A DNA stretch of 64,000 nt, from the NCBI GenBank assembly GCA_041649715.1, contig JBAZMP010000002.1:196964-260963 (forward strand), in the 5' to 3' direction. The stretch is from Patescibacteria group bacterium. GTDB taxonomy: Bacteria > Patescibacteriota > Patescibacteriia > JAXHNJ01. Shown here piece by piece: positions 30,814-52,756 of this stretch (its first letter is position 1; every line of letters begins with the position of its first letter). Below the pieces are notes generated by a model that saw nothing but the letters and a program-made list of their open reading frames with translations, did not search any database and was not told where the DNA came from. The translations under genes were made by a program, and so were the position numbers.

Positions 30814-32916
30814 ATGTCAGTCGGGTTGAAGAAAAATGCGCAAAAATTCATCTTTTTGGTCATTGTGCCAGTCTTGTTGGTGATTTTGAATATCTACATT
30901 ATTTATCCTCTGTTCAGCGGCGACTATAATCAGAATATTTCCTCCATTGAAGTAGCATTCTTCACCGACGCGAAATTTATCTACGATCACTTTCCTCATC
31001 TGACCTGGATGCCGGACTGGTACATCGGTTTTCCTTTTCATAATATCTATACGCCGTTCTTGCCTTTTATGATTGCTTTGCTGCATTGGCTGGTAGGGGG
31101 CGTGACTTTTGCTCACTTTTATCGGATCTTAATGGCCCTTTTCTATATCATCGGGCCAGTCAGTCTTTACTTTTTTGTCCGCTATTTAACCGGCCGTCAC
31201 TTTGCGGGCTTGTTCGCCGCCATCGGTTATTCCATCCTGCCCTCTTTCAGCTATTTAATCGGCGGGACAAGCGCTTACGGCGATATGATCCACCGCGGCC
31301 CGGTTCAATTAGTGATTCTACAAGTCTTCGGGGAGGGACCGCATTTGGCGGCTTTATCTTTGGCGCCACTGGCCGCTTTGGCCTTTTTATGGGCTTTACG
31401 TCAGCCAAAATTCAGCCATCATTTGCTGGCGGCCGTGGCCATCGGGCTGGTGGGCTTGATTAACTGGTTTGGTTTGGTGACTTTGATCTTGATGCTTTTA
31501 GCCGTCTGGCTGTCCGAGATCTTTAAAGGCGAGGGAGGAAGAAAAACCAAAAATACTATAACTATCTTTTCAATGGCCTATGGCTTGATCGCTTTTTGGT
31601 TTAATCTTTCTTTTATCAAGTCAAGCTTAGGTTTTGGCGGCGGCGGTCGGGCCGAAGGAGATATCTTGGCCAATTATCTCAAATTGTTGCCGATGATACC
31701 GATTTTGCTCCCCGTCATCGTGGCCTTGGGCTGGCTTTTGAGCAAAAAGATTAAAAAGTTGCCGGGTTTATTCGTCGGTCTACTCTGGCTCATTATTTTC
31801 TTAATCGTGACCGTTAGTTGGTATCGCTGGGGGATTGCTTTTCTGCCCCAGCCGCCCCGATTTTTAACGGAAGTGAACTTAGCGGCTTTTATCGTTTTGG
31901 CCATCTTCCAGGATGGGATTTTAAAAAAGATTTTACCAGACAGTCAGGCAGGAGAAAAAAAAATAGGCAAGGGGAAACATGTCTTTGGTGGTCTGTATGT
32001 TGTGTTGGTCCTGTTAGCCATATTTTATTTTTCTCGAAGTTTTTTGGCTAATCCGCATGATTTATTGAAGCCTCATGAAGATATCACCAAAACATACCCT
32101 TTTGAAGTGGCGAAATTTTTAGACAGTAACGTCAGTCAAAATGAACGGGTACTGGCCAGCGGGAATATCGCTTTCTGGCTGGATTATTTTTCTGATGTCA
32201 GCCAGGTGAAAGGAGCCGCCGACCAGGCCGCCACTCACCCTTTTTGGAGCCACGCGATTTATCAAATAACCACCGGGGAAAATGCCCCGGAGGGCCGGGC
32301 CGGTGAGATGGCCTTGGTCTGGTTAAAAGCTTTGAACGCGAATTATATCGTGGTTAATACGCCGCTTTCTCACGATCCTTTCTATGATTTTAAGGACCCG
32401 GAAAAATTTGAGACCCTGGAAAAAGTTTATGAATCTCAGGGCGACGTGGTCTATGCCGTGCCTTTAACCAATCCATCTTTGGCGCAGGTCGTGGATGAGG
32501 ACAGATATGGTAGATTAGAAGCCCCGACCAACGGCGTTGATTATCAAAGCGTAAAAGCTTACGCCGACTGGGTAGATAAGCAAGCTAAGCCCGCTAACTT
32601 CAATTGGATAAATAATGATACTTTTGAAATTCAAGCCGACGTTAATGATGGTGATCTAGTTTCAGCCCAGATCACATTTGATAAAGGCTGGCAGATTACA
32701 GGCTCGGGCCATCGTTTGAAAACGGCAAAAGACGTCATGGGCAATCTGGTGATTTTTCCCCGTACTTCGGGCCAATTAATTATCAGAGGACGCTATAAGA
32801 ACACCTGGGATGTCGGTTTTGGCTACTTAATTACTTTGGTCTCCGTCGTCTATTGTATTATTACTCTTATAAGAAATAGAAAAAAGTATGGAATTGAAAA
32901 AAGGGAAAAAAAATGA
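30814..32916 (+). CDS. polytopic membrane protein, GT-C-fold glycosyltransferase-like (paralog 0, lacks WW-KDE tail)
   Basis: N-terminal ~420-aa multi-TM domain with a conserved Asp after TM1 (SGDYNQ) and a FPHLTWMPDWYIGFP loop. A ~250-aa soluble C-terminal domain and a final TM helix. Confidence 0.5.
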   Translation: MSVGLKKNAQKFIFLVIVPVLLVILNIYIIYPLFSGDYNQNISSIEVAFFTDAKFIYDHFPHLTWMPDWYIGFPFHNIYTPFLPFMIALLHWLVGGVTFAHFYRILMALFYIIGPVSLYFFVRYLTGRHFAGLFAAIGYSILPSFSYLIGGTSAYGDMIHRGPVQLVILQVFGEGPHLAALSLAPLAALAFLWALRQPKFSHHLLAAVAIGLVGLINWFGLVTLILMLLAVWLSEIFKGEGGRKTKNTITIFSMAYGLIAFWFNLSFIKSSLGFGGGGRAEGDILANYLKLLPMIPILLPVIVALGWLLSKKIKKLPGLFVGLLWLIIFLIVTVSWYRWGIAFLPQPPRFLTEVNLAAFIVLAIFQDGILKKILPDSQAGEKKIGKGKHVFGGLYVVLVLLAIFYFSRSFLANPHDLLKPHEDITKTYPFEVAKFLDSNVSQNERVLASGNIAFWLDYFSDVSQVKGAADQAATHPFWSHAIYQITTGENAPEGRAGEMALVWLKALNANYIVVNTPLSHDPFYDFKDPEKFETLEKVYESQGDVVYAVPLTNPSLAQVVDEDRYGRLEAPTNGVDYQSVKAYADWVDKQAKPANFNWINNDTFEIQADVNDGDLVSAQITFDKGWQITGSGHRLKTAKDVMGNLVIFPRTSGQLIIRGRYKNTWDVGFGYLITLVSVVYCIITLIRNRKKYGIEKREKK

Positions 32917-35731
32917 TAGTAAACCCAGGCGTCGCTGGTTAACACTCATATTTTTGTTGTTCTCTTTGGCTTTTATGGTCTTTTGCGGCTATCTTTGGCA
33001 GGCCTGGACGGGATTCCCCAAGGGCGTGGATTCCTACGTTCATATGACCAGAATAAAATACGTTCTGGATTTTTTCCCGCATATTGATTGGCAGTACCAC
33101 TGGGCCAATGGCATGCTTCTTTTTTCCTACGCCTCCATTCATTTTATTTTCGGCGCCATTTTAGTCAAGCTCGCGGGTATATCGGCGGCTAAATCCCTTA
33201 TCGTATTGGCCCTTTTCAGTTATAGTTTGATGACCGTCGGAATTTTTGCCATAGTTTACCAAGTGACCAAAAAAGCTTGGCCCGCTTTATTAGCGGTCAT
33301 TTTAACTTTTTCCAGTTTCGGCGCTTGGAACTGGATGGTGATGGACGGGAACTATCCGCGCCTGCTTGGCTTGGGCTTTATGTTTTTAGCCATATATTTT
33401 TATATTAAACTTCTGTCAGAAAGTGGCGAAGGAACAAAATCTAATAAAAAATGGATCATTCTATCCATTATTTTCCTTTTTTCCGCCCTTGTCTCGCACG
33501 TTTTAGCGGCAATGTTCGGTTTTTTGACCTTATTCTTTCTGACCCTATTTTCAAAAATGAAATTCGGCCGTAAATTTAAATATTTATTTATGGTCATTTT
33601 ATCCTCTTTTGCCCTCGCTTCATTTTTCTACTTTTCTCAGATTATTCATTTCTTTTATTTTTCGGGTAATTATGTCGGGGCGATTGGCGATATCGTCCCC
33701 ATGAAGATTTCCTACGTATTTCAAGATACCTTGGGTATCGGATTTCTCCTTCTGCCACTTTTGTTAATATTGGTTCTTGTCAATATTTTTCTTAAACCGG
33801 AGGCAGACAAAGGCCCTTTTGTTTTTTCTTACAGCCGTTATATTTGGTCCTTTATTATTATGTTATTCTTGTTTCTCACATACGCTTTTATCGGTTACAC
33901 CGGCTTGAAGCCTCAATATTACAGCATCCGGGGCTTTATCCCTTTTTCCATGAATATTTTGATTGTCATCTTCAGCAGTCTGCTAATCGGGATAATGCTG
34001 GGGAGGATTTCGGTAAAAAGGGGTATTTATACCCGGATTTTTCTCAGCCTCATGGCTTTAGTGATCATTGGTTATTCTGCCCTCCTGGTTTGGCGATCTT
34101 ACGATACGGTGAGTCATTGCCGGCTAACCCGATATATTTATGATTCATCCTCAGCCAAGCTGTGTGATTCTTTCGCCAGTCATGAATATGTTTCCTCTCA
34201 TTTTTACACTTTTCCAGAAGGCGAGGATTATCAACATCGTTTCGCCCCCTATGACGCCTACGATGCTATCTGGTTCAATTACGCGTATAAAATTCCCCAA
34301 GAGAGGGATTATCATGCCCACGGCGTGCTTTATCCGGATTGGCGCTACTGGTTTGAGCAGGTGGTTTGGAAGCCGAAAGAGTTTACTATGGATGAAGCAA
34401 AATCAGCTTTTGATTGGTTTGCCATTCGTTGGTTTGGCGACCGCGCCGCGGTCGATGAGAAAGCTTACGCTAATTTAGTGGAAAAGACGGCAAATACCCT
34501 AGAGGACAAGCTGGCCGCGATCAATTCCCGCTATCTGAAAGACAAGGATTTTTCTTTAGTAAAATCTGACGCGAACACAGTCACGACACAAAATTTGAGT
34601 CTGGAAATAGAAGTGAAAAATCCCAGCCAGATCTTGGCCGCCAGCAACACACCCACCATCTTATATATCGGCGGAAACGAAGGATACAATCCGTTTTTCT
34701 TCAACCTGACCCTGCATAATTACAACAGTCAGGACATTATCCCCGTCAAAGGCGAAAAATACGTCGATAGTTATAGGCTTAACGATCTCAAACAGTTTGA
34801 TGCCATTTTTCTTTACAGCTACCAATACAAAAACAAGGAAAATGCTTACTCGCTATTGAAGGGTTACGTGGAAGGAGGCGGCAACCTCATTTGGGAGGCC
34901 TGGAACTCTGAAGATGCTCAGGTCCTCCAAAAAGAAACCAATAAAAATAACATTCAGGCTAATAAGGTGAGCTTACCCGAACCTTCGCCGGTCAGCGAGC
35001 TTTCTCTTACGGAGATTTCCGGCGAATGGGATTTTCAAGCCACTAGCGAGCCAATATTCGGTCAGATCAATTTCACAAAATTCAGCCCCCCTAAATATCT
35101 CAGCTCTCCCTGGAAGGTGGCGGTGCCGACTCAAAGCTCAGCGGTTAGAAACTGGGCAAAAGTGATTCTTTCCAGCCAGGACCACCCCGTGATGATCAGT
35201 GGGCAGTATGGCCAGGGCCATATCCTGTGGACCGGTTTTAATTTCAATTATCATATTACCGACACCAAAAATTTTGAGGAAGCGAAGCTGCTGATCAGCA
35301 TCATCAAAAGTCTGGTCGGCAACAAGGGTGAATCAGCCATGGCTGAGGCAAAATTCATCAATCCTGATTTACGGGAAATCAGCCTGGAAAATCCGGCCAA
35401 GGGTGTTTTATTCCGAGAGAGTTTTTACCCCAATTGGCGGGCTCGTTTAAGCGATGGGCAGAAATTGGCCGTTCTTTACGCTGGACCGGGTCTGATGTAT
35501 GTGCCTCTTCCTGAAAACTTAGAGACCGGCTTAAAAGTGATTCTATACTATGATAAGAGCCTGACCGAAAAAATCGGAAGCGTTCTTTCTCTGGTCAGTT
35601 TACTGATTTTTTTGATCTATGTTTTGGAGGGCTGGCTATTCAAGCCGATCCTTTCCCGATTAAGCCAGAAAATCTTCCAAAAATCAACCCATAATTTAAA
35701 AAACTGGTGGGCGAAGGACGAAGATGAATAA
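32888..35731 (+). CDS. giant polytopic membrane protein, GT-C-like (paralog A1) with C-terminal TM + WWAKDEDE tail
   Basis: 947 aa. N-terminal multi-TM domain (GVDSYVH...FPHIDWQYHWANGM). A ~450-aa extracytoplasmic domain. Final TM (VLSLVSLLIFLIYVLEGWLF) then KNWWAKDEDE. Confidence 0.5.
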   Translation: MELKKGKKNDSKPRRRWLTLIFLLFSLAFMVFCGYLWQAWTGFPKGVDSYVHMTRIKYVLDFFPHIDWQYHWANGMLLFSYASIHFIFGAILVKLAGISAAKSLIVLALFSYSLMTVGIFAIVYQVTKKAWPALLAVILTFSSFGAWNWMVMDGNYPRLLGLGFMFLAIYFYIKLLSESGEGTKSNKKWIILSIIFLFSALVSHVLAAMFGFLTLFFLTLFSKMKFGRKFKYLFMVILSSFALASFFYFSQIIHFFYFSGNYVGAIGDIVPMKISYVFQDTLGIGFLLLPLLLILVLVNIFLKPEADKGPFVFSYSRYIWSFIIMLFLFLTYAFIGYTGLKPQYYSIRGFIPFSMNILIVIFSSLLIGIMLGRISVKRGIYTRIFLSLMALVIIGYSALLVWRSYDTVSHCRLTRYIYDSSSAKLCDSFASHEYVSSHFYTFPEGEDYQHRFAPYDAYDAIWFNYAYKIPQERDYHAHGVLYPDWRYWFEQVVWKPKEFTMDEAKSAFDWFAIRWFGDRAAVDEKAYANLVEKTANTLEDKLAAINSRYLKDKDFSLVKSDANTVTTQNLSLEIEVKNPSQILAASNTPTILYIGGNEGYNPFFFNLTLHNYNSQDIIPVKGEKYVDSYRLNDLKQFDAIFLYSYQYKNKENAYSLLKGYVEGGGNLIWEAWNSEDAQVLQKETNKNNIQANKVSLPEPSPVSELSLTEISGEWDFQATSEPIFGQINFTKFSPPKYLSSPWKVAVPTQSSAVRNWAKVILSSQDHPVMISGQYGQGHILWTGFNFNYHITDTKNFEEAKLLISIIKSLVGNKGESAMAEAKFINPDLREISLENPAKGVLFRESFYPNWRARLSDGQKLAVLYAGPGLMYVPLPENLETGLKVILYYDKSLTEKIGSVLSLVSLLIFLIYVLEGWLFKPILSRLSQKIFQKSTHNLKNWWAKDEDE

Positions 35732-38459
35732 TACCAAAGTCACAAAGGGGATAAAATGGGGCGTCTTTATAACCGCCGGTATATTGCTGGTGATTATCGC
35801 CTTTACTTTTTTAATATCTTATCTTACCACTCTTTCAGGTTACTACCCGATGCTGGGATACAATGATTTTTTGGCCAATGCCTCCCGCGCGCGTTTTATG
35901 CTGGACTTCTGGCCGCATATTAACTGGAATCATGAGTGGGGCTCAGGGATGCCTTTCTTTTTGTGGTACGCCCCCTTTCCTTTTTATTTGATAATTTTAT
36001 TCGCCAAAATATTCTCGGACATTGAGATGGGATTAGCGGTGATTAATGTTTTGAGCTTCGCTTTTATGGGGGTGGGGGTTTACGGTATAGTCTATACGGT
36101 GACCAGAAAGAGATTATTGGCGGTATTTTCCGCTTTTTTATCCATCAGCTTGCCGGCTTATTGGTATCGTATTCTTGCCGGAACCGTTCCCCGAACAATT
36201 TCTACCGCTTTTATGATGGTCAGCCTTTGGTTTCTAGTCCGGCTCTTAAAGGATTATTATGAAAATAATCAAAAGATAAATAAAAAAATATTTGTTTTTT
36301 TGATAATCTTTCTGACTTTAAGTTTGCAAAACCACATCTATATTACCGCCGTGACCGGTCTATTCGTTTTGATCATTATTTTTGTACTGGTCCGCGGCTT
36401 AAAAGAAAAAATAAAGATGTTGTTTAAAATAGTCACTTTGCCCCTGTTGCTGAGTTTTTATTTTTTATTCCCGTTTTTTGTCACCTTATCGCAATCCGTT
36501 CTCATAAAAAAAACGTCCATTGGTATTTACAAAGCCGAACCGGCGGATCTGGCTTTGTATCTTTTTCATAATCCAGACAAATTAGTGATCAATGGAGGGG
36601 GCTTAAATCCGCTCGTCCTGCCTTTTATCGTCATTTTTTTGTTGGTGGTTTTATTCGGCCGGCTAACCCGGGGTGATTCTTTTGGTAAAAGGATGATCAT
36701 CTGTTTTTTTCTTTTAACCGTGATGCTAGTCCTTTTTGGGACAGCCATCTATTTGGGTTACCCGGCCAACTGGTACTCGGTCAATTCCGTGCCCGATGAA
36801 GGATTTTATTTTCTTGCTTTAGTCACGCCTGTTCTCTGGGGCATTTTATTTTATTACATTTTCGGTAAACGGCGCTTCCTTTACTATACCTTTATGGCGG
36901 CCTTTTTTGTCGCCTTGGGCCTGGTTATCTGGTGGCAGTATCCGCAAAGGAACACTTATTCTGTTCGCAGTCACGATAACTACCCCACCAGTCAGGAAAA
37001 CCGTGAAGCGAATACGATTAACAAGATGCTAAAAAACGATATGACCGAATTGCAGTATCGCTTTGCCCACCCGGCTACGGAAATTGCCTTATATTTTAAC
37101 TATATTTATCGCATTCCCCAAACCCGAGATTTTTTCGCCCAGGGGGATTTACACCCTGACTGGCGGCCGTGGCTTGAGAATGCCATTTGGGAATGGAAAA
37201 ATAATTACAACGAAGTCAACTTCCTTTTAGATTGGTATGGGATAAAATGGTTTGCCGTTTGTAGTCCGGCGGATGTGGTAACCATGAGCGAAAAATACGA
37301 AAAAGAGCCGGATTTATACCAGAGGGCGGTAGAAAACGACAATTTTCAGGGCTTTATTTATAAAAACTTTTCACCGATTCTTTCCGCCAGCCAGTCCCCA
37401 AGCTTGTTAATTGTGGGAGCCAAAGAACAGAACAAATCTTACGACCCCGTTTTAAGAGACTTGGCCTTGCTTAATATCAATAGTCAGTATTTAATTCCGG
37501 TAAGAGGAAAAGATTATATTGAGGATTATAGTTTAGATGAACTGTCAAAATTTGATTCGGTTATTCTTTACCAGTATAAAATAAAAAATATCGAGAAGAT
37601 GGCGAATCTACTCAACAATTACGTGGAAAATGGCGGGGGCTTAATTATTGAAGCCAGCGACTTCGTTGATGATAGCCTGAAGTCCGAACTCGCCAAAAAA
37701 ATACTAGGCGTTTATATAAGGGAAATAAATGTCAACAGAGATTGGCAGTTTGAAGCGGGCAACTCCGCAATTGCCTCCGGCATTGATTTCACCGAATTTT
37801 CCCCAGCCCTTTATTTAGACAGCCCCTGGAAAGTTTACGTGAACCCAGTAAAAAACGATCAAGTTGAGAATGTTTTGCTGACCGATGGCCAGCCGGTGGT
37901 CATGGCCAAAAACTTTGGTCAAGGAAGGGTTATTTTTTCCGGCCTTAACCTGCCTTATCATATTCGTAACAATAACCAGCTTAATCTTGAAGAGACGAAA
38001 TTCCTGAATAATATGTATAAGTGGGTATTGAACGGTGACTTGGAAAAAGCCGTCCCGGTAAATTATGAGATGAAGTTCATTAGTCCGGAAAAAAGGGAAG
38101 TATCGTTGCGGGAAGAAGCAAGTGGCGTGGTCTTTAAGGAAAATTACTTTGCTAACTGGCACGCCTACTTAGAACAGGAGGGGGGCAAGACAAATTTGAC
38201 CATTTATCCGGCCGGGCCGGATTTCATGTATGTGCCTTTGCCAAGAAATTCGACGGGGGCGACACTTGTTTTTCAGTATAAAAAATCAACCCTGGAAGAT
38301 GTCAGCTTATACATCACCATCGTTATCGGTTTTGGCTTCGTCATCTATATCTTGGAAGGCTGGCTTTTTAAACCTATTCTGCCCAAGCTAAAACAATTGA
38401 CTCTCGGCCGGTTTTCCAAGCAAACACAAAAATGGTGGAATAAAGATGAAGAAGGGTAA
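35724..38459 (+). CDS. giant polytopic membrane protein, GT-C-like (paralog A2) with C-terminal TM + WWNKDEEG tail
   Basis: 911 aa, paralogous to 32888..35731 (GYNDFLA...WPHINWNHEWGSGMP; shared YILEGWLFKPIL helix). Tail is QKWWNKDEEG. Confidence 0.5.
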   Translation: MNNTKVTKGIKWGVFITAGILLVIIAFTFLISYLTTLSGYYPMLGYNDFLANASRARFMLDFWPHINWNHEWGSGMPFFLWYAPFPFYLIILFAKIFSDIEMGLAVINVLSFAFMGVGVYGIVYTVTRKRLLAVFSAFLSISLPAYWYRILAGTVPRTISTAFMMVSLWFLVRLLKDYYENNQKINKKIFVFLIIFLTLSLQNHIYITAVTGLFVLIIIFVLVRGLKEKIKMLFKIVTLPLLLSFYFLFPFFVTLSQSVLIKKTSIGIYKAEPADLALYLFHNPDKLVINGGGLNPLVLPFIVIFLLVVLFGRLTRGDSFGKRMIICFFLLTVMLVLFGTAIYLGYPANWYSVNSVPDEGFYFLALVTPVLWGILFYYIFGKRRFLYYTFMAAFFVALGLVIWWQYPQRNTYSVRSHDNYPTSQENREANTINKMLKNDMTELQYRFAHPATEIALYFNYIYRIPQTRDFFAQGDLHPDWRPWLENAIWEWKNNYNEVNFLLDWYGIKWFAVCSPADVVTMSEKYEKEPDLYQRAVENDNFQGFIYKNFSPILSASQSPSLLIVGAKEQNKSYDPVLRDLALLNINSQYLIPVRGKDYIEDYSLDELSKFDSVILYQYKIKNIEKMANLLNNYVENGGGLIIEASDFVDDSLKSELAKKILGVYIREINVNRDWQFEAGNSAIASGIDFTEFSPALYLDSPWKVYVNPVKNDQVENVLLTDGQPVVMAKNFGQGRVIFSGLNLPYHIRNNNQLNLEETKFLNNMYKWVLNGDLEKAVPVNYEMKFISPEKREVSLREEASGVVFKENYFANWHAYLEQEGGKTNLTIYPAGPDFMYVPLPRNSTGATLVFQYKKSTLEDVSLYITIVIGFGFVIYILEGWLFKPILPKLKQLTLGRFSKQTQKWWNKDEEG

Positions 38460-38463
38460 CCAT

Positions 38464-39180: not shown

Positions 39181-39182
39181 AT

Positions 39183-39860
39183 ATGAAAGTCAGTATTATC
39201 GTCCCAACAAAAAATGAGGAGAAAAATATCAAGGAGATTTTAGATAAAGCCAAAAAATTTGGCGAGGAAATTTTAGTCGTAGACGGTCATTCCACGGATA
39301 AAACGCCAGATATCGTGCAAGCAACGGGCGTGAAACTAATAGAGGATCAGGGTTTAGGCAAGGGAGAAGCCCTGCGTCGAGCAATTAAGGAAACTTCAGC
39401 TGATATCATGGTTTTTATAGATGCAGACGGTTCGCATAATTCCGAGGATATCCCGAAACTGATTGAGCCTATAAAAGATAACCAAGCCGATTTAGTGATC
39501 GCTTCCCGGAGGACCGGCGGATCGGACGAATTGTACGGCGACCTCAATAAGTTTTTCCGCGAATTAGGCAGCAATATTATTACTCTGCTGATCAACCATC
39601 ATTTTAAGACCGCCGTGACCGACAGCCAAAATGGTTTCCGGGCAATTAAAGCGTCCTTGGCAAAAGAATTGGATTTAAAAGAAAACATCACCACCATTGA
39701 ACAAGAAATGTTAATTAAGGTTTTAAGGAAAGGTGGCCGGGTGACGGAAATACCCAGTCATGAAAATAAAAGGAAATATGGCTGTTCTGTCATTAAATTG
39801 TCAAAGGTTTGGTGGCGCTATATATACAGTTGTCTTAAATATTTATATTTTTATTCATGA
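39183..39860 (+). CDS. family 2 glycosyltransferase (polyprenyl-phosphate sugar synthase-like)
   Basis: MKVSIIVPTKNEEKNI...VVDGHSTD...FIDADGSH is the GT2 DxD-type layout, as in DPM1/GtrB-like enzymes. Confidence 0.75.
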   Translation: MKVSIIVPTKNEEKNIKEILDKAKKFGEEILVVDGHSTDKTPDIVQATGVKLIEDQGLGKGEALRRAIKETSADIMVFIDADGSHNSEDIPKLIEPIKDNQADLVIASRRTGGSDELYGDLNKFFRELGSNIITLLINHHFKTAVTDSQNGFRAIKASLAKELDLKENITTIEQEMLIKVLRKGGRVTEIPSHENKRKYGCSVIKLSKVWWRYIYSCLKYLYFYS

Positions 39861-41272
39861 GAATATATCTAGTGAATCCTCCCGCTCCCGATGGCATAGC
39901 CATGGTCAGAGAGGGGAGATGCATGCAACGTAAAGGGGCGTGGACCGCGGTTTGGGCGCCAATTTCTCTAGCGACCATGGGAGCCATCTTTGAAAAAGAA
40001 GGCTATGCGGTTAAATTGAACGATTGCATCGTGGAAAACATTGATTTTAGGCAATTGGAAAAGATTATACGGCAATTTTCCCCGTCGGTAGTGATTATTA
40101 ACACGGCCACTCCCTCGATTGAGAGCGATTTAAAAGTGGCGGCTCTGGCCAAATCAATTGACCGCCGTATTCTGACCGTGGTTTTTGGCATCCACGTCAC
40201 CGCTTTGCCCAAAGAAACGTTAGAAATGGCAAAAGATCTTGACCTAGTGGTGCGCGGGGAGCCCGAGGAAACGGTTAAAGAGATTGCCGCTTATTTAAAT
40301 CGAGGCGATAGATTGGAAAACATAAAAGGCCTTTCCTACCGGAAGAACGGCCAGATTATTCAACAAGAAGACCGGCCCCTGGTTCAAAATTTGGACACCT
40401 TTCCCTTTCCGGCTTGGCACTTGGTGGATATTTCAAAATACACCTTGCCTTTTAAAAACAAACCCTTCCTATTAGTGGATACCGGCCGCGGCTGTCCCTT
40501 CAACTGCACCTTTTGTTCCGCGGCCGCATTTTACGGCCATCAGGTAAGATTACGCTCGGTAAAAAATTTAGTCGATGAGCTGGTTTACATAAAGGATAAA
40601 TACAAGGTTGATGAATTTCTTTTCTGGACGGAAAGTTTCACTTTAAATAATGATTATGCTAAGGCCGTCTGTCGGGAAATAATCAGCCGGCATTTAAAGA
40701 TCGGTTTTGTCTGTAATTCTCGCGTGACCGGGATCGACAGGGAACTGCTGGCCTTAATCAAAAAGGCGGGTGGTTGGATGATCGGCTACGGGGTGGAATC
40801 AGGTAGCCAGAAAATACTTGACCAGGCAAAGAAGGGAATCACGCTCAAGCAGATCGAAGAAGCGGTCAATCTGGCGAAAGAGGTGGGTTTAGATGTGACG
40901 GCTCATGTGATTTTTGGTCTGCCCGGCGAAACGCAGGAAACGATGCGAGAAACCTTAAAATTTTGTTTAAGATTACCCTTGGATTATGCCCAGTTTTACT
41001 GCGCCGTGCCTTTTCCCGGCTCCCAGTTTTATCAAGAGGCCAAGCAGAATAATTGGCTCGTGGATTCGCGCTGGCCCTACCTTGAACAGAATTTCTGTGT
41101 CATAGATTATTTCTCTCTTTCCAGCCGCCAGATCATGGATTTTCGGCGCCAAGCCTTTCGTAAGTTTTACCTGCGGCCGAAAATGATTTTCAAGGCGCTC
41201 GGAAGGATTGATTCGTGGTGGAGCATTAAATATTTCTTCTCCATGCTTAAGGATTTTTTAACCTGGATTTAA
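39857..41272 (+). CDS. B12-binding domain radical SAM protein
   Basis: N-terminal B12-binding-like domain. Triad CPFNCTFC. Confidence 0.85.
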   Translation: MRIYLVNPPAPDGIAMVREGRCMQRKGAWTAVWAPISLATMGAIFEKEGYAVKLNDCIVENIDFRQLEKIIRQFSPSVVIINTATPSIESDLKVAALAKSIDRRILTVVFGIHVTALPKETLEMAKDLDLVVRGEPEETVKEIAAYLNRGDRLENIKGLSYRKNGQIIQQEDRPLVQNLDTFPFPAWHLVDISKYTLPFKNKPFLLVDTGRGCPFNCTFCSAAAFYGHQVRLRSVKNLVDELVYIKDKYKVDEFLFWTESFTLNNDYAKAVCREIISRHLKIGFVCNSRVTGIDRELLALIKKAGGWMIGYGVESGSQKILDQAKKGITLKQIEEAVNLAKEVGLDVTAHVIFGLPGETQETMRETLKFCLRLPLDYAQFYCAVPFPGSQFYQEAKQNNWLVDSRWPYLEQNFCVIDYFSLSSRQIMDFRRQAFRKFYLRPKMIFKALGRIDSWWSIKYFFSMLKDFLTWI

Positions 41273-43224: not shown

Positions 43225-44129
43225 TGAACAATTTAAAAAAAATAATCGTCTGCCCCGTGTGTCTTAAGGGTTTATCCCTTAAAATGGGCCATTATTATTG
43301 TCCAGAGTGCGGCCGATCTTATGCCGTAAAAGAAGGAATACCGGTTTTAGTGAAAGGAGAAATATTCGACTCACAGATCCAAAATAAGGAATATGAGTGG
43401 AAAAGAAAGGAGATATTGGTTTTTGATGCAGTTGATGATTACGAGAAATTCATGTCCCGGCCTTATTTCCGCGATTTAAAAGAACAAATCAGCCAGGAGC
43501 TGAAACTCTTAAAAGATAATAAAAACGAGGTTTTGGAAGTCGGGGCGGGGATCAGTCTTTTCGCGCCGATGTTCGCCGATAAAAATCTGGTTTTAACCGA
43601 TTTAAGCTTTTCTCTTTTAAGAAAAAACGAAGCCCATATTTTCAAAGTGGTGGCGGACGGAGAATATCTGCCCTTTGCCGATCAAAGTTTTGATTTTATT
43701 TATGTGATTGGTTTGATCCATCATCTCCCGAACCAAAGGAGAGGTTTAAAAGAGCTCAAACGCCTAGTCAGGCCCGGCGGCCAGATTTTTTTAAGCGAGC
43801 CGACTAAATGGAGTTTTAATTTGATTTATTATCTGGTCCGCCGCCTCTTATTAAAAATTATGGGTGAAAGATGGCTGAAACGACTGAGCGGCTGCGGCAC
43901 GCCTTATGAATCCTTTATTAATTTAAAGTTGGTCAAAGAAATATTTAAAGATGATTTTGAAATAAAAGTGAAGAAAATTTTCCCTTGCCGCTGGCCACCT
44001 CTGTTATTCTTAGAGAAAATGAAGATTATCGTGCCCCTGAATAAATTTTGGCAGAAAGTGCCACTGGTCCGGAATTTCGGCAGCATTATTTTTATCACCC
44101 TGACGCGGAAAAAATACTATGGAGTATGA
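43221..44129 (+). CDS. SAM methyltransferase with N-terminal Trm112-like zinc ribbon
   Basis: CPVC...CPEC...GIPVLV Trm112-like N-terminus. Then VLEVGAG...GEYLPFADQSFDFIY as the methyltransferase core. Confidence 0.65.
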   Translation: MMNNLKKIIVCPVCLKGLSLKMGHYYCPECGRSYAVKEGIPVLVKGEIFDSQIQNKEYEWKRKEILVFDAVDDYEKFMSRPYFRDLKEQISQELKLLKDNKNEVLEVGAGISLFAPMFADKNLVLTDLSFSLLRKNEAHIFKVVADGEYLPFADQSFDFIYVIGLIHHLPNQRRGLKELKRLVRPGGQIFLSEPTKWSFNLIYYLVRRLLLKIMGERWLKRLSGCGTPYESFINLKLVKEIFKDDFEIKVKKIFPCRWPPLLFLEKMKIIVPLNKFWQKVPLVRNFGSIIFITLTRKKYYGV

Positions 44130-44733
44130 CGAAAAAATCGGCTACGGCTCCAATTATGAAAAATATCTATTAAGCGGGATTTTCCGCCGTTTGATTGAAA
44201 AACTCAAGATTCAAGCCGTTTTAGAATATCCCGCGAATCGTTTAATGGGGAACCATGAAGAGCTGTTTGAAGGTTTGGATATAAAAATCAATCCGCCGAC
44301 GGCGGATCTGGTCTGGAATTTCTGCGAGTATGAGCAAAGTGAAGACCGGGATTTGCTTTTTAAAGAAATGCTCAATCGGAGCCAAAAGTACATATTAGTC
44401 ATTACCGGCAATAAAAGAAATTTAGGGGTAATTTTGCACCGGCTTTGGCATTTAATGATTTTTAAATCTTGGGACCATGGCCGACTGGATTTGATGGATT
44501 ATAAAAAAGTAGAAAAGAGGGCGAAAAGATTTGATCATTTGAAAATCATCAAGAAGGGAACTTTTGACGTACCCTGGTTTATTTTGGACGTCTATGAGTG
44601 TGGCCGGTTTCTAAAAAAATTTATCCCTCATAAGGATGATATGCCGGTAAAGCCGTCATTTTGGGAAAGATGGCCGTGGTTTATCAAGAAATATATGGCG
44701 CATCATTTTTATGTGCTGATGGAAAAAATATGA
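44119..44733 (+). CDS. hypothetical protein
   Basis: 204-aa ORF, translationally coupled to its neighbours (ATGA overlap at 44730). No motifs recognised. Confidence 0.45.
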   Translation: MEYDEKIGYGSNYEKYLLSGIFRRLIEKLKIQAVLEYPANRLMGNHEELFEGLDIKINPPTADLVWNFCEYEQSEDRDLLFKEMLNRSQKYILVITGNKRNLGVILHRLWHLMIFKSWDHGRLDLMDYKKVEKRAKRFDHLKIIKKGTFDVPWFILDVYECGRFLKKFIPHKDDMPVKPSFWERWPWFIKKYMAHHFYVLMEKI

Positions 44734-46118
44734 AGGTTCTCTTGATTTATCCGAAAAGCAAAATTTGGAATATGCCGACCCAAAGGCCGCTGGGTTTGGG
44801 TTACTTGGCGGCGGTTTTAGAAAAAGCCGGTCATGAGGTAAAAATTTTTGATTGTATGGTAGAAGAAGGGTCGGCGGTGGACTACTGTTCTAATTTTTCG
44901 CCAGAGTTAGTCGGGATATCAGCTAATACTCCTTTGATCAAAAGCGCGTGGGAAATAGCCTCAGAAATCAAGAAAAAAGGTAATTCCTTTATCGTTTTGG
45001 GCGGGCCGCACCCCACGGCTTTGCCAGAGGAGTCTCTTAAACTCCCCTATATTGATGCCGTGGTGAGAGGTGAAGGAGAAGAAACGGTATTGGAATTGGT
45101 TGAAGCTTTGGCGGAGAAAAAAGGTTTGGCCGATATTTCCGGTCTTTCTTTTAAAGAAGGGGATAGTCTAATTCATAATCCGGCCAGGCCGTTGAATAAT
45201 AACCTAGACACTTTGCCTTGGCCGGCTTATCATCTTTACCAAAGTGACAAATATTCAGTGACCCAACCTTTACGTGACCGGCCTTTTGGAAAAGCCAAAG
45301 CATTTTATCTGATGACTTCACGGGGTTGCCCGTACGCCTGCAGTTTTTGTTTCAAGGGGATTTATGGCCTCTCCTGGCGACCCCGCACGCCAGAAAACGT
45401 AGTCGCCGAGTGGGACTTTTTAGTCAATAAGTTAGGCGCCACGGAGATCGGTGTCCAGGATGATTTGTTTAATTTCGACAAAAAAAGAGCCCTGAGAATT
45501 TGTGATCTGTTAGTCGAGAAGAATTTGAGTCATGTGCCTTGGATTACGAATAATGGTATCCGCGTCAATTTTGTCGATGAAGAGCTTTTAGCCGCCATGA
45601 AAAAAGCCGGTTGCAAAAGAGTGGCTTTTGGGGTGGAAAGCGGGGATCAGCGAATATTGGACCACATTCACAAAAAAATCACCTTGGAAATGGTAAGGAA
45701 GGCTTTTACGGCTGCTAAGAAAGTCGGTTTGGAAACCATGGGCTTTTTCATGTTCGGCAACCTGGGAGAAAATGAGGGAACAATGGAAAAGACGATTCAA
45801 TTTGCTTTAGAATTAGACCCTTTAGTTTCGCATTTCAGTGTGGCGACTCCCTTTCCGGGCACGGAGTTCTTTCAGAAAGTGGAAAAAGAAGGAAAATTTC
45901 TCACCCGCAATTGGGACGACTACGGCCTTTTAGAAGGCAGGGCCGTTTTCGAGCGGGGAGAAATAAAAGCGCCGCTTTTGGAAAGAAAGTGGCACGAAGC
46001 TTACCGACGATTTTATCTGAGGTCAAGAAGGATATTCCGAGAAATTTTCAAATTAAGCAACTGGTTGAATTTGCCTCGGCTGCTTAAGGCTGGTTTTCAG
46101 TATTTTTTTGGGAGCTGA
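44730..46118 (+). CDS. B12-binding domain radical SAM protein
   Basis: Paralog of 29386 (LGLGYLAAVLEKAGHEVKIFD). Triad CPYACSFC. Start at ATG 44730. Confidence 0.85.
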   Translation: MKVLLIYPKSKIWNMPTQRPLGLGYLAAVLEKAGHEVKIFDCMVEEGSAVDYCSNFSPELVGISANTPLIKSAWEIASEIKKKGNSFIVLGGPHPTALPEESLKLPYIDAVVRGEGEETVLELVEALAEKKGLADISGLSFKEGDSLIHNPARPLNNNLDTLPWPAYHLYQSDKYSVTQPLRDRPFGKAKAFYLMTSRGCPYACSFCFKGIYGLSWRPRTPENVVAEWDFLVNKLGATEIGVQDDLFNFDKKRALRICDLLVEKNLSHVPWITNNGIRVNFVDEELLAAMKKAGCKRVAFGVESGDQRILDHIHKKITLEMVRKAFTAAKKVGLETMGFFMFGNLGENEGTMEKTIQFALELDPLVSHFSVATPFPGTEFFQKVEKEGKFLTRNWDDYGLLEGRAVFERGEIKAPLLERKWHEAYRRFYLRSRRIFREIFKLSNWLNLPRLLKAGFQYFFGS

Positions 46119-46527: not shown

Positions 46528-46530
46528 TCT

Positions 46531-47241: not shown

Positions 47242-47244
47242 TAT

Positions 47245-49992
47245 ATGTCCTCTAATAAAAGTTTACCTGTAAATAAGGAGGAGAAAAAAACCCGAAGCGG
47301 CCTTCGCTTTCTTTGGTTTTTTCTTTTTACCCTTTTTGGCGGCGCCTTAATTTTTGCCGCCTTTTATATGATGGCTAGGGTCTATTACGGCTATTATCCT
47401 CCGCTCGGCAATGATTTTTATCACTCTTTTAATTTATCGAATTATTTCAAAGATAATTTAACCTGGCCGCCGGGCAGCTGGCGGTATATCTGGCAGTACG
47501 GCGGACCGACGATTATCGCCTATCCCTGGCTAAATTTTTACCTGGTTCAACCGGTTATCCATTTTTTCGGAGTTTTCCAAGGGACGATGTATTATTTTTT
47601 GGCCACTCTTTTTCTTTACGGTTTTTTCGCCTATTTTCTTTTTTACCGTTTATGCAAATCATATCTGGTTTCAATTGGTCTAGCCGTAGCTCTGCTTTGG
47701 TCGGCCAGCACCTGGCGGCTGCTTATTGCCGGTTCCCTGACCTTGACCGCTAACCAGCTTTTCCTTATTTTGACTTTGCTATTAATCTTTATTTATCTCC
47801 AGAATAAGAAATTAATATATTTATTGCTCTCGGCCATGGTGGCCGGTATCTCGATCATCAGTCAGTCAGGGAGCGGCTCTCCCTTTATCGTGCCCTTGGG
47901 TTTTTTAATTATTTGGGGTACCTGGGGAGAAAAAGAGGGGTTCTGGCGGGCCAGCAAGATAAAACACAGTTTAATCTATCTTCTTGTCGCCGGATTAATG
48001 GCCAGTTACTACTTATATTTCACGTTTATTAACGTTCTCGCCTCCCGAGCCACTCGGGAAATATCCGATTGGATAACAAAAGAAGCCTTCACTTCCATCA
48101 TCACTAAAACCAATCCGATGATATTGGTTCTTTTCGTCATATTATTACCAGTTGTAATAATCGGAAAAAAACTAAAAGTCAGCTTAAGGAAAATAATGCC
48201 GGTAATATTTGCCTTTTTGTATCTTATTCTTTTTAATTTGGCCACGGTCATCGGCATTAATCCTTATAGCTCTTCTTTGCCGCCGCCGGAGAACTGGTTT
48301 ATACTGACGCTTTTAATCGCCTTAGCGGTGGCTATTTTCTGGGGAGAAGCCAAAGAAGTGATAAGGAGTCATAGCCGTCAGTGGCTTGTCGGTTTTATCA
48401 CCCTGGCAATATTTTTGCTTCTTCTGACTCCTTTCGGTTATTGGCAAAGCCTAAACATCTTACAGACTTATGATAAAAGTAACGCCGTGGCGGGTGCGCC
48501 GGCTGACGCAATTCATCAGGCCGTCGTTAAGGGGGATTTTACTGCTTTGGAAAAAGCGATACCCGACTGGGTGGATAAGAATAATATCAATGAACGTATC
48601 TTTTCCTCGGGCTTGGATTTGTGGTGGAACGCCATCTATAAAACTCCCCTGACCGGCGGTTATGACCAGGTTCTAGTCAATGATATCAACACCAATTATA
48701 TCAATTGGACCAACGAATTATTCAACGGCAGTCAGCTGAAGAGGGGTTTACCCGCGGCCATCGCTAAAAACAGCCTGCTCTTTCATATTGACTGGCTGGC
48801 TATCCGTAATATTGAATTCGTGTCTGGCTTCTCTTATTATGACGATCCGGATATCGTCGATTTGGGCCATCGACTCGGGGATTATCAGATCTTAGGGGTC
48901 AATAAAAATAATTTTTCCCCGATTATCCGGCCGACTAATACCCCGAGTTTGTTAGTGGTGGCTGATCAGGAGGGTTACGATACCATCTTGAGAATTTTGG
49001 CTCAGGAAAATCTTAATTCCCGCTATATTATTCCGATCAAAGGCCCGGAATACATTGATAAGCTGAGCGATCATGATTTAATGCCTTTTGACGCGGTACT
49101 GCTTTATGATTATCACTATAAAAAAGAGAAAAATTTTCAGAAAGTTCCCCAAGAGCCCTGGCAGAAACTGGCGGCCTATGTGAAGGCGGGGGGTAAGCTG
49201 TTTATCGAGGGAGGCTCGGACGTCAAGGAATCGGATATCAGTAATCTGCCCGACGGGACTTTGCCGGAGGTTTTTCCGGTGGCCAGAACTACTCGTGATC
49301 AACTAGGCAGTGAGTGGCAAACCGAGATTAAAGACAACAGTCTGTTTTCAGGGATTGCCGTTAAGGATTTTGGCAAACTTCTATATCAGGATTCCCCCTG
49401 GAAACTTTCTTATGCCGACCTTAATCAAGTTAAAGACGGAGCAGAAGTTATTTTGACCCAAAAAGGAGAGGCGGTTTTAGCTCAACAAAAATTGGGCCAG
49501 GGCGAAGTGATCTGGTCGGGTTTAAATCTCCCTTATCACATCCAGAGCTATAACAATTTAGCAGAGAGTCATTTATTTAACCATCTTTTAGGTAAGCTAG
49601 TCATTTTAAAAGAAGAAGAGTTATCGCCCTTTGATTGGCAGAGGCCGACGGCGGAAAATATCATGATCGGCGCGGGAAATTACAAGGGTGTGCTTTTCAA
49701 AGAGTATTTTTATCCCGGCTGGCAGGCCAAGCAAGGCCAGGATGACTTAAAAATATACTCGGCTGGTTTTGACTTCATGTATATTCCCGTCCGTAACCAA
49801 GCTCCGTTCAGTCTTCATTACAAAGGAGACGCGAAATACTGGATCATGTTTATTATTTCTTTAGTGACTATCTTTTTAATCTTGATTTATCTGGTGTTCG
49901 GTCGGGGCCTAAGCCTTGCTTGCCGAAAATTATTCCGATTAAATAAAATAAAGAAAAAAACCACCTCCTGGTGGGAAAAAGATGAAGAATGA
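47245..49992 (+). CDS. giant polytopic membrane protein, GT-C-like (paralog B1) with C-terminal TM + SWWEKDEE tail
   Basis: 915 aa. PLGNDFYH after TM1 and a WPPGSWRYIWQYGGP loop. Soluble domain with LLYDYHYKKEKNFQKV...GGKLFIEGGSD. Final TM then RKLFRLNKIKKKTTSWWEKDEE. Confidence 0.5.
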   Translation: MSSNKSLPVNKEEKKTRSGLRFLWFFLFTLFGGALIFAAFYMMARVYYGYYPPLGNDFYHSFNLSNYFKDNLTWPPGSWRYIWQYGGPTIIAYPWLNFYLVQPVIHFFGVFQGTMYYFLATLFLYGFFAYFLFYRLCKSYLVSIGLAVALLWSASTWRLLIAGSLTLTANQLFLILTLLLIFIYLQNKKLIYLLLSAMVAGISIISQSGSGSPFIVPLGFLIIWGTWGEKEGFWRASKIKHSLIYLLVAGLMASYYLYFTFINVLASRATREISDWITKEAFTSIITKTNPMILVLFVILLPVVIIGKKLKVSLRKIMPVIFAFLYLILFNLATVIGINPYSSSLPPPENWFILTLLIALAVAIFWGEAKEVIRSHSRQWLVGFITLAIFLLLLTPFGYWQSLNILQTYDKSNAVAGAPADAIHQAVVKGDFTALEKAIPDWVDKNNINERIFSSGLDLWWNAIYKTPLTGGYDQVLVNDINTNYINWTNELFNGSQLKRGLPAAIAKNSLLFHIDWLAIRNIEFVSGFSYYDDPDIVDLGHRLGDYQILGVNKNNFSPIIRPTNTPSLLVVADQEGYDTILRILAQENLNSRYIIPIKGPEYIDKLSDHDLMPFDAVLLYDYHYKKEKNFQKVPQEPWQKLAAYVKAGGKLFIEGGSDVKESDISNLPDGTLPEVFPVARTTRDQLGSEWQTEIKDNSLFSGIAVKDFGKLLYQDSPWKLSYADLNQVKDGAEVILTQKGEAVLAQQKLGQGEVIWSGLNLPYHIQSYNNLAESHLFNHLLGKLVILKEEELSPFDWQRPTAENIMIGAGNYKGVLFKEYFYPGWQAKQGQDDLKIYSAGFDFMYIPVRNQAPFSLHYKGDAKYWIMFIISLVTIFLILIYLVFGRGLSLACRKLFRLNKIKKKTTSWWEKDEE

Positions 49993-52756
49993 GATTAAAA
50001 AAGAAAAGAAGAGCTTTTGGCGGGCTAAGCCGGTTTCGATGTTTGCCCACCTGATTTTAATCGTCCTGACCGGCCTTTCTTTTTGGCCTTTCGCGAGTTT
50101 TTACTACCACCATGTGACCCCATTGGGAGGGGATTTTTACCAAACTTCCTCTTATTTCGGCTATTTCTATCGTTTTGCCACTTGGCCGCCGATGCTTTGG
50201 AAATATATCTGGTTCAATGGCCTGCCGGCCGTTTTTGACTATCCCTGGTTGCATATGTATTTAGGGGCGCCCTTGCTTAATTTTTTTACCAGCGTCACCG
50301 CCAATCGGATTTATTCCCTGGCGACACTTTTTTTGTTTTTTGTCTTCAGTTATGCCCTATTTAATAAACTCTCTAAAAATAAAATATTTGCCGTTTTCCT
50401 GGCGAGTCTCTTAATTTGGTCACGCGGTATTTATGTGAATTTGTTCGGCGCGGGCGCTGGCGCCTTTTCCGCCACCATGCTTTTTACGCCGCTCGTTTTT
50501 TATTTATTATTGAAATATTTCGACCGGGGGCAGGCTAAATGGTTGTTGATGGCGGCCGTTTTAAGCGGTCTTTCGGTCGCCGGACATCAGGGGATGAGTG
50601 GTTTATTCGTTTTTATCCCTAGTCTTATTCTTCTCTTCTTTAATAGTGATCCGAATCATAAATTTTTCTCGGGCAAGAAATTCAAGGATCTATTCCTTTA
50701 CCTCCTTTTTTTCCTGCTCTCGGGGGGCTTGGCTTTATACCCGTATATCTTGGCTTTTTTGGGTTCGCTATTTGGTTTTGAAACTATGCTGGAGACGGCC
50801 ACTCAGGCTTGGGCCAAGAAAGACGCTCTGCCCGGGCTTTTTACTTTTACCAACCCCGCTTTTTATTTTACTTCGGGTCTGCTGATTATTTTTATTCTGC
50901 TCCGGAAGAAATTTAGGGAGGCGCTAAAAAAATCCCTAGGTTTCATTATTTTAAGCCTTTATGTGATTATTTATGAAGTCCTGATGTACTACGGGAAAAA
51001 CTTCTTTGCCGAAACCTTAGGGTCGGATCGCGCCTTTTGGTTTTTCCCTCTGGCCTTAGGGGGAATACTGGCGATTTTTTTTCAAAAGATTAGGGCGGAA
51101 AAAAACGCCCAGGTAAAAGTATCTTTCGGCTTTATTTTAAAGGGTTTGGCCATTGCGGCGGTAGCTACCGGCTTTATTTTTGCGCCCAGCATTTACTGGG
51201 TCGTGAGGAATACGACTGGCTTATCCGTTATTACCACCCCGGCGGAGAACCTGATGGCACACCCCAATGAGGCTAACAAAGAGGAGGTGATGCCGGATTG
51301 GTTGGATACGGCGGATAAAAACCACCGTTTGCACACGGCCGGCGCCATGAACATCTGGTGGAATGCCCTGTACGATCTGCCATTGACCGGCGGTTATGCT
51401 GACCCCGAAGGGCCGAAAATGCGCGCTTATAAGTATTGGCGGGATACTTCCATGACCGGGGAGGCCATGGAGCATTTCAAGCAGCCGGAGCCGATTGCCA
51501 AGAATTACGCCTTTTTCTTGATTGATTGGTATGCCATCAAATATATCGAATACTCGAGCGGCAGTTATGCCGCGCCTTCCTATCTTTATACCAATCCGGA
51601 TTTTGTGGCCAAAGAGCAGCTGATGCCCCAAACCGGCTACCATTTTTACCAGGCCAAGGATCAATATTACTCACCGATTGTCAGGCCGACCAATGCCCCT
51701 ACGGTTCTAATCATTTCGACCCAGGAAAGTTATAATACCTTACTGCGCATCATCGCCATGGAAAATATTAATTCCCAATCCCTTATTCCGATTCGTTATT
51801 CCCAATATATTGATGATCTAACTAAAGTTAATTTGAATGATTTTGACGCGGTCTTGCTCTATGATTACCATTATAAAAAAGAGAAAAATTTTCAGAAAGT
51901 TCCCCAAGAGCCTTGGCAGAAACTGGCGGCTTATGTGAAGACGGGGGGCAAGCTATTTATAGAGGGAGGCTCGGATGTCAAGGAGTCGGATATTGGTAAT
52001 CTGCCCGACGGGACTTTGCCTGAGGTTTTTCCGGTGACTAAAACTCAGCGCGAAGATCTGGGCTCGGTCTGGCAATTGGCCATTAAAGAGCCCGATTTGC
52101 TGAAAAACATTAATCCGCAGAAATTTGACGCTTTAGTCTACCAGGACGGTCCCTGGAATCTTTCTTACGCGGAACCGGCGGCGATAAAATCCGGCGCGCA
52201 AATCGTTTTGACCCAAAATGATAAGGCCATTTTAGTGCAGGAAAATTTGGGTCAGGGTCAGGTGCTTTGGTCGGGGATGAATCTGCCCTACCACATTAAA
52301 AGCTATAACAACATTGAAGAAGGCAGGCTTTTCCGGGTCCTATTAAATTCCTTAGTGACCCTGGCGCCAGAAACTCCCCCGCCTTTTAGCTTGGAAAGAA
52401 ATAAATCAGAAGAGATTAAGATCACCAGCCAAAATTTCAAAGGCATTCTTTTCAAGGAAACCTATTACGGCGGCTGGCGGGCTACCCTTTCCGGCGAGAA
52501 AAAGAAGCCTTACGAGGCCGGGGTGGGCATGATGTATTTTCCCTTGGGCAGCGACAAAAATGCGACCGTCGAGGTTTACTACCGGGGTTTGTTTATTTAT
52601 TGGTTGTTGTTCGGGCTAATGATTTTCTCGATCGTCTTCGCGCTCTTCAGTTTGATTTTCGGGGAAAAATTGAACGCTGTCTTTAAAAAACTATTTCGCG
52701 TGGAAAAGATTAAAAAGAAGACCACGTCTTGGTGGGAAAAAGATGAACAGGAATAA
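49982..52756 (+). CDS. giant polytopic membrane protein, GT-C-like (paralog B2) with C-terminal TM + SWWEKDEQE tail
   Basis: 924 aa, tandem paralog of B1 (PLGGDFYQ; WPPMLWKYIWFNGLP). Tail KKLFRVEKIKKKTTSWWEKDEQE. Confidence 0.5.
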   Translation: MKNEIKKEKKSFWRAKPVSMFAHLILIVLTGLSFWPFASFYYHHVTPLGGDFYQTSSYFGYFYRFATWPPMLWKYIWFNGLPAVFDYPWLHMYLGAPLLNFFTSVTANRIYSLATLFLFFVFSYALFNKLSKNKIFAVFLASLLIWSRGIYVNLFGAGAGAFSATMLFTPLVFYLLLKYFDRGQAKWLLMAAVLSGLSVAGHQGMSGLFVFIPSLILLFFNSDPNHKFFSGKKFKDLFLYLLFFLLSGGLALYPYILAFLGSLFGFETMLETATQAWAKKDALPGLFTFTNPAFYFTSGLLIIFILLRKKFREALKKSLGFIILSLYVIIYEVLMYYGKNFFAETLGSDRAFWFFPLALGGILAIFFQKIRAEKNAQVKVSFGFILKGLAIAAVATGFIFAPSIYWVVRNTTGLSVITTPAENLMAHPNEANKEEVMPDWLDTADKNHRLHTAGAMNIWWNALYDLPLTGGYADPEGPKMRAYKYWRDTSMTGEAMEHFKQPEPIAKNYAFFLIDWYAIKYIEYSSGSYAAPSYLYTNPDFVAKEQLMPQTGYHFYQAKDQYYSPIVRPTNAPTVLIISTQESYNTLLRIIAMENINSQSLIPIRYSQYIDDLTKVNLNDFDAVLLYDYHYKKEKNFQKVPQEPWQKLAAYVKTGGKLFIEGGSDVKESDIGNLPDGTLPEVFPVTKTQREDLGSVWQLAIKEPDLLKNINPQKFDALVYQDGPWNLSYAEPAAIKSGAQIVLTQNDKAILVQENLGQGQVLWSGMNLPYHIKSYNNIEEGRLFRVLLNSLVTLAPETPPPFSLERNKSEEIKITSQNFKGILFKETYYGGWRATLSGEKKKPYEAGVGMMYFPLGSDKNATVEVYYRGLFIYWLLFGLMIFSIVFALFSLIFGEKLNAVFKKLFRVEKIKKKTTSWWEKDEQE

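Follow-up and report, generated by a model that had tools for sequence, protein, structure and literature searches.

Why should four membrane proteins encoded in one locus of a Patescibacteria group bacterium carry the same few residues at their free C-termini, and what might such a tail do for its carriers? The window analysed here is the whole 64 kb stretch of contig JBAZMP010000002.1 (positions 196,964 to 260,963 of the forward strand), and the four proteins are encoded on its plus strand as two tandem gene pairs, comprising the upstream members A1 (32888–35731, 947 residues) and B1 (47245–49992, 915 residues) and the downstream members A2 (35724–38459, 911 residues) and B2 (49982–52756, 924 residues). 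Each C-terminus is laid out as a hydrophobic helix, a basic linker of 23–26 residues and WWxKDE(x) at the free end. In A1, which ends in NLKNWWAKDEDE, the last transmembrane helix (residues 896–913, 35573–35626) is followed by the linker EGWLFKPILSRLSQKIFQKSTHNLKN (residues 914–939, 35627–35704, placed from the coordinates and the family logo) and the motif WWAKDEDE (35705–35728). In A2, ending TQKWWNKDEEG, the equivalent segments are a helix at residues 860–877 (38301–38354), a linker at residues 878–903 (38355–38432) and WWNKDEEG (38433–38456). B1, ending TTSWWEKDEE, has its helix at residues 865–885 (49837–49899), the linker GRGLSLACRKLFRLNKIKKKTTS (49900–49968) and WWEKDEE (49969–49989), while B2, ending TTSWWEKDEQE, has a helix at residues 873–893 (52598–52660), the linker GEKLNAVFKKLFRVEKIKKKTTS (52661–52729) and WWEKDEQE (52730–52753). 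The helix segments derive from a Kyte-Doolittle hydropathy scan and that of A2 is also seen in an AlphaFold model, where it spans residues 856–877.

The initial annotation of this DNA had described these four open reading frames (ORFs), a single hydrophobic helix ahead of each tail, and A and B pairs that are otherwise highly diverged. Translation, hydropathy and alignment support each point, although the label 'giant' is too strong for proteins of 911–947 residues. Protein identity is 24–26% between A and B, 33–35% between A1 and A2 and 41.6% between B1 and B2, and all four aligned sequences agree at the WW, K, D and E of the tail. A six-frame translation of the window contains the pattern WW.K[DE][DE] four times, only at the four C-termini, against an expectation of 0.008 from the window's own residue frequencies. 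The annotation also held that the tail DNA of B1 and B2 is itself diverged, which is correct at the level of codons, where 19 of the last 25 residues are identical, 17 of these have degenerate codons and just seven of the 17 use the same codon. It is less apt at the level of alignment, as the tail is one of just two B1/B2 stretches that blastn aligns at all (77% over 61 nucleotides). Because synonymous codons differ both between B1 and B2 and across the tails of the wider family, conservation operates on the protein, and the earlier suggestion of selection on the tail gains from this codon variation and from the existence of carriers at around 26% identity. Nor is the tail simply inherited among local paralogs and absent from orthologous loci: it is kept in a syntenic orthologous locus (L197), where the orthologs end in WWAKDDEEE and WWDKDEDE, and it is widespread in the family.

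Homology and structural modelling assign A1, A2, B1 and B2, which form two tandem pairs of paralogs, to the GT-C fold glycosyltransferases and, among these, to the uncharacterised family PF10131. A2 matches the Pfam model PF10131 (PTPS_related) with an E-value of 4.8e-13 and 48.9 bits, above the gathering cut-off of 26.4, A1 scores below it at 16.7 bits, and B1 and B2 have no direct match to the model. All four are nonetheless mutually homologous and all are recovered by a family profile with hmmsearch. Within the GT-C clan, PF10131 is listed as a family of unknown function (PMC7801869), and a literature search for it returned nothing beyond that clan listing. An AlphaFold model of A2 built from an 80-sequence alignment has a mean predicted local distance difference test score (pLDDT) of 91.1 and a predicted template modelling score of 0.91, and its top Foldseek matches are STT3, AglB, PglB, DPY19, AftA and AftD. 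Profile searches of Protein Data Bank sequences gave a weak match to TMEM260 for the membrane part and a weak match to the ThuA-like protein 2gk3 for residues 584–717. The model comprises 11 N-terminal membrane helices, an outside domain of around 450 residues (406–855) and a 12th helix (856–877), after which a short turn leads into one continuous helix (886–910, pLDDT 73–82) that holds the whole tail. The model puts Asp48 in the first outside loop; this residue does not vary in alignments of 4 and 6 sequences and is conserved at 90% or more in those of 80 and 135 sequences. The tail is predicted to be cytoplasmic because an N-in topology with alternating helices puts the short basic loops of A2 (NNQKINKK, RGLKEK, GRLTRGDSFGKR and GKRR) inside, and helix 12 then returns the chain to that side. 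The same placement is argued by the linker after the last helix, which has a median net charge of +5 across family tails and a median length of 18 residues, counted between the hydrophobic window's last position and WW.

Pairing is itself a conserved feature. Upstream members best-match upstream members of other loci in 23 cases against three, downstream members best-match downstream members in 21 against five, the best foreign matches of A1 are upstream members of tandem pairs, and both members of a pair usually carry the tail. Within the outside domain, B1 and B2 also share a block (48916–49556 and 51671–52311; approximately residues 609–684 of B1) with 83–97% protein and around 90–93% DNA identity at its core and mostly the same codons, compared with 41.6% identity over the whole genes. 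This block looks like a recent gene-conversion tract.

How far does the tail extend beyond this locus? A full-length word-index search found three proteins, and it was an exhaustive HMMER search together with a genome scan that revealed the family. At E ≤ 1e-3 the HMMER search yielded 3349 representatives, as clusters at 50% identity, of which 629 reach E ≤ 1e-30, and 152 family proteins were examined, comprising the 150 best representatives and two earlier matches, almost all of them 50%-identity cluster representatives. Of the 152, 58 have WW.[KR][DE][DE] within the last 14 residues and another 36 a terminal WW, while the Trp is single in 28 and missing in 30. Among the 135 aligned sequences are 56 strict carriers, with a median identity of 25.6%. 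A scan of one genome per species provided 77 loci (L001–L077), about 1.1 Mb of related loci, and places the tail in several Patescibacteria classes and in Anaerolineae. Dormibacterota have a variant, GWWxRRTxxWxSEDG, and many Chloroflexi, Actinomycetota and archaeal relatives end in a plain helix and an Arg cluster. A profile of 133–148 non-redundant tails anchored on WW has hydrophobic positions every 3–4 residues (-18, -14, -10/-11, -7, -3, 0 and +1), K/R at -16, -8, -5, -4 and +3 (82% at +3), E/D at +2, and D/E at +4, +5 and +6 (96%, 90% and 84%), with 3–7 residues following WW in 127 of 133 tails. The tail therefore appears, on these comparisons, to be an ancient hallmark of a large part of the PF10131-type GT-C family. 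It is undescribed in the literature searched, a limited search finding no mention of a C-terminal helix with a WW-acidic tail.

In all sampled material the helix-linker-motif module is restricted to this one family. Among the 3903 ORFs of the 77 loci and the window, all 45 that end in WW and acidic residues are family members. A scan of metagenome DNA for WW[DE]K[DE][DE][DE] followed by a stop returned 120 matches, and all 24 with a real stop and an upstream hydrophobic helix again belong to the family, so that neither survey contained a non-homologous helix-bearing carrier. A profile of the tail alone (last 55–58 residues) run against an index of 5.8 billion proteins gave 117 word candidates, none at E ≤ 10, and was uninformative on this point. 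The remaining real-stop metagenome matches are soluble proteins or short frames. They include 13 soluble S4-domain (Hsp15-like) proteins of around 140 residues on large metagenome contigs (L081 1747–1770, L100 7747–7770, L102, L117, L121, L134, L145, L146, L149, L150, L152, L154 and L165), which end in DDLQ(A/S)S(D/E)WW(D/E)KEDE and so have the same terminal heptad after a basic stretch, without a membrane helix. Hexapeptide-repeat acetyltransferases with an internal, well-conserved KWWDKDEEW (L080, L084, L087, L089 and around 55 other loci) entered the scan because the DNA pattern accepted TGG for the stop codon. Neither of these two groups has the helix or is homologous, and both were set aside.

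The reading that we tentatively prefer, and that falls just short of what we would call probable, is that the tail forms a basic helix next to the membrane on the cytoplasmic side, held down by WW and ending in an acidic cap, that anchors or locks the last membrane helix. On this model-based proposal the protein would enter the membrane N-in with 11 N-terminal helices, present the conserved Asp on the first loop outside, expose an extracytoplasmic domain of around 450 residues, and return through the 12th helix to a cytoplasmic tail of around 30 residues. The basic helix (net charge around +5), ending W-W-[E/D]-[K/R]-[E/D]-[E/D]-[E] some 3–7 residues from the free carboxyl group, would lie at the surface of the inner leaflet beside the enzyme's own basic cytoplasmic loops. 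The two Trp residues may pin the end of this helix in the membrane interface and leave the acidic tip in the cytosol. As the last membrane helix is synthesised only around 30 residues before the stop codon, the tail could serve to fix its topology and position, and a fixed last helix would in turn keep the outside domain in contact with the catalytic core. The tail would remain uncleaved and have no sorting role. Several observations weigh against this reading. Amphipathicity is moderate, with a median z of 1.07 relative to shuffled tails and 31% of tails above 1.64, and the hydrophobic stripe is narrow, which suits helix-helix packing as well as membrane binding. A strict WW-x-K-acidic sequence, set at a constant distance from the free end, looks to exceed what a generic anchor needs and favours recognition. 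About a fifth of the closest relatives lack the tail Trp and end in a helix and Arg cluster, and the tail is therefore dispensable for the fold.

Recognition is the basis of a different reading, possible if doubtful and raised by the initial annotation as a cytoplasmic handle, in which the cytoplasmic helix and its WW-x-K-acidic free end act as a short linear motif that binds a partner. By analogy with known complexes the motif might bind the tandem paralog, by its tail or core, to form a heterodimer, or might bind a cytosolic pathway enzyme such as a lipid-sugar GT2 glycosyltransferase lacking membrane helices. Very strong conservation, as seen in WW, K/R and the acidic residues at their set distance from the C-terminus, would be expected of such a motif, as would the kept order of the tandem pairs and their usually having two tails, and a narrow hydrophobic stripe with a 3.5-residue period is well suited to helix packing. 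All four GT2 enzymes in the window lack membrane helices, and GT-A enzymes with small membrane partners are documented, as for GacI and GacJ (PMC8035078). However, no partner family tracks the tail: short GT2 genes without membrane helices lie near 10 tail-bearing and 11 tail-less loci, and unbiased clustering of neighbouring genes returned tail-enriched families (GT2 of around 300 residues, B12-binding radical S-adenosylmethionine (radical-SAM) enzymes, PMT_2, GT4 and carbamoyltransferase) that follow phylogeny, in this case Microgenomates synteny, and are all generic glycan enzymes. The two tails of a pair are also both strongly basic, which disfavours a parallel coiled coil, and no column outside the tail convincingly separates carriers from non-carriers. 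A stronger form of the idea, in which WW-x-K-(D/E)3 would be a dedicated docking peptide of outward-facing GT-C transferases in Patescibacteria and other single-membrane lineages, strikes us as unlikely. Such a peptide might recruit the paired paralog, or else the enzymes that make and modify the lipid-linked donor, whether radical-SAM enzymes or GT2 enzymes without membrane helices. Were the idea true, docking would physically link the steps of envelope glycan synthesis inside the cell to those outside, and the tail would represent an undescribed short linear motif. A role for the WW and acidic run in ribosome stalling or termination is speculation.

Two further readings explain the tail by its neighbours in the genome, and both fare worse than anchoring or docking. 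The initial annotation had noted an exosortase-like gene at the head of the locus, a tail that resembles tripartite sorting signals and matches none of them, and the prospect of a novel sorting signal. The gene (28469–29272, the first of the plus-strand cluster) bears out its description and is a genuine exosortase/archaeosortase relative, scoring 32.1 bits against TIGR04178 (cut-off 23) and having WNC.GWQS, N..R and HDY, with the Cys, Arg and His, conserved at 90% or more in 16 homologs. It falls below the cut-off of every subfamily model (XrtG, ArtC, ArtF and CrtC), and a literature search for XrtG gave one XrtG/Firmicu-CTERM mention. Like LPXTG, PEP-CTERM, PGF-CTERM, GlyGly-CTERM and MYXO-CTERM signals, the tail occupies the very end of the protein and has a single helix followed by basic residues, and homologs of the exosortase-like gene lie within 10 kb of the GT-C family in 16 of 74 loci, archaeal ones included. 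It is nevertheless very improbable that the tail is a sorting or processing signal read by this protein, with helix and tail cleaved off or used for retention. In C-terminal sorting signals, which many proteins of a genome carry, a signature motif is followed by a helix and then by an Arg cluster (bioRxiv 10.1101/2023.06.07.544157). Here the order is reversed: WW-x-K-acidic lies 23–26 residues C-terminal of the helix and does not abut the outer side, the segment ahead of the helix has a weak S/T-x-x-E cap common to tail-less relatives too, and the linker is basic but the last 4–5 residues are 84–96% D/E. The carriers are all one protein family in both surveys (45 of 45 and 24 of 24). An NCBIfam scan of the full proteins and of their last 61–64 residues gave no sorting-domain match at E up to 10, in agreement with the annotation's view that no known class fits. 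The exosortase-like gene, whose co-occurrence with the tail the annotation had proposed as a check, is found within 10 kb in three of the 29 loci that have the tail and in 13 of the 45 that lack it, and is absent from L197, where both tails are kept; the exosortase relative accompanies the GT-C family, not the tail. Nothing obvious is gained by re-anchoring an enzyme that already has 12 membrane helices. An exosortase neighbour and a C-terminal helix do not make a sorting signal, and this corrects a tempting misreading. More improbable still is that the tail is a by-product of dual coding, kept because its TGGTGG (Shine-Dalgarno-like) and the ATG within GATGAA serve translational coupling to the downstream gene. 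Three of the four tails in the window (35705–35731, 38433–38459 and 49969–49992) do contain the next start as G-ATG-AA, with TGGTGG 5–13 nucleotides upstream: the last GAT GAA TAA of A1 holds the ATG of A2 (35724), the GAT GAA of A2 holds a possible ATG (38446) of the downstream methyltransferase, and the GAT GAA GAA TGA of B1 holds the ATG of B2 (49982), with TGGTGGGA 5 nucleotides upstream. B2 does not overlap a downstream gene, the next start being at 52772. Across all loci, the start of the next gene overlaps 17 of 48 tail-bearing genes, but 31 of 48 have no such overlap, some with no gene for hundreds to thousands of bases, and tail-less family genes overlap the following gene at a similar rate (20 of 72). 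WWEKEEE, the sequence of many tails, provides no ATG, and the K-D-E of A1 is encoded AAG GAC GAA, again without one. These overlap counts rule out dual coding as the main cause of conservation. As a secondary use, the purine-rich TGGTGG...GATGAA of the tail DNA likely doubles here as ribosome-binding site and start for translational coupling.

The surrounding genes place the tail-bearing proteins in an envelope-glycan locus of a Patescibacteria metagenome-assembled genome. Their neighbours are a LytR-CpsA-Psr protein, four GT2 enzymes without membrane helices, three methyltransferases, and four B12-binding and one SPASM radical-SAM enzymes. The radical-SAM genes (29386–30810, 39857–41272, 44661–46118, 52772–54238 and 42085–43224) are interleaved with those for GT2 enzymes and methyltransferases, and the set suggests that the glycan or its carrier undergoes unusual C-methylation or some other radical chemistry. 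B12-binding radical-SAM genes lie near six of 29 tail-bearing and one of 45 tail-less loci. Upstream of A1, a 700-residue membrane protein (30814–32916, plus strand) provides a tail-less comparison, as it ends in a helix and basic tail (RNRKKYGIEKREKK) without WW. It has no Pfam match, is recovered by the family profile and is a distant relative of the 900-residue proteins. Counterparts occur at L197 5109–7214, L001 5168–7261 and L035 6748–8841, and the order of 700-residue protein, A1 and A2 is kept in other loci. A small exosortase relative with a core of around 190 residues likewise recurs beside the GT-C family in Patescibacteria, Chloroflexi, Dormibacterota and Aigarchaeota/Caldarchaeales (among others at L001 527–1096, L004 3514–4146, L013 7112–7807, L017 3975–4520, L063 5233–5823 and L064 1170–1775), frequently in the order exosortase-like gene, 700-residue paralog, 900-residue A-type GT-C. 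A further gene (44119–44733) encodes a 204-residue soluble protein with no Pfam or NCBIfam match and no detectable homolog in the 77 loci. L197 has a 205-residue ORF without a Pfam match at the equivalent position (18452–19069), the two being matched by position only.

In the library searched, PF10131 comprises 3349 clusters at 50% identity with no characterised member, and it is abundant in candidate phyla radiation (CPR) bacteria, Chloroflexi, Dormibacterota and some archaea, all of which have poorly understood envelopes. A strictly conserved 7-residue cytoplasmic end on an enzyme that acts outside is a cheap experimental handle, open to truncation, tagging and use as a peptide bait, and could address how these GT-C enzymes are positioned, paired and supplied with donor. 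The finding should be useful for annotation and to specialists in glycan assembly, and overturns nothing.

How, then, do these proteins compare with known systems? With the PF10131 family they share the A2 match above cut-off, orthologs annotated as such and the arrangement of a multi-helix N-terminal part and an outside domain. They differ in that B1 and B2 miss the model and in that the Pfam match stops at A2 residue 746, well before the last helix and tail. STT3, AglB and PglB are the best structural matches (Foldseek E 2e-7 to 1e-5, query TM-score 0.33–0.41) and similarly place an Asp in the first loop outside the membrane, where they also have a soluble domain, although identity is 10–14% and the outside domain here is ThuA-like with a beta-sandwich. 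STT3, AglB and PglB are not known to have an extra C-terminal membrane helix that returns to the cytoplasm. EmbA-EmbB and PMT1-PMT2 are heterodimeric pairs of GT-C paralogs, and the adjacent paralogous GT-C genes in conserved order described here are reminiscent of them, as a working analogy for docking. DPM3 tethers DPM1, and tethers of the DPM3/DPM1 and GacJ/GacI kind offer a working analogy only for GT2 enzymes that, as in this locus, lack membrane helices. Multi-component transmembrane glycosylation combines a GT-A/GT2 lipid-sugar synthase, a flippase and a GT-C enzyme, as in CsbB/GtcA/YfhO, GtlA/GtlB and GacI/J/K/L (PMC8035078). The locus is similar in setting several GT2 enzymes beside several GT-C enzymes. 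It differs in having no GtrA- or Wzx-type flippase recognised in the annotated stretch, and in adding to the glycosyltransferases its five radical-SAM enzymes (four B12-binding, one SPASM) and three methyltransferases.

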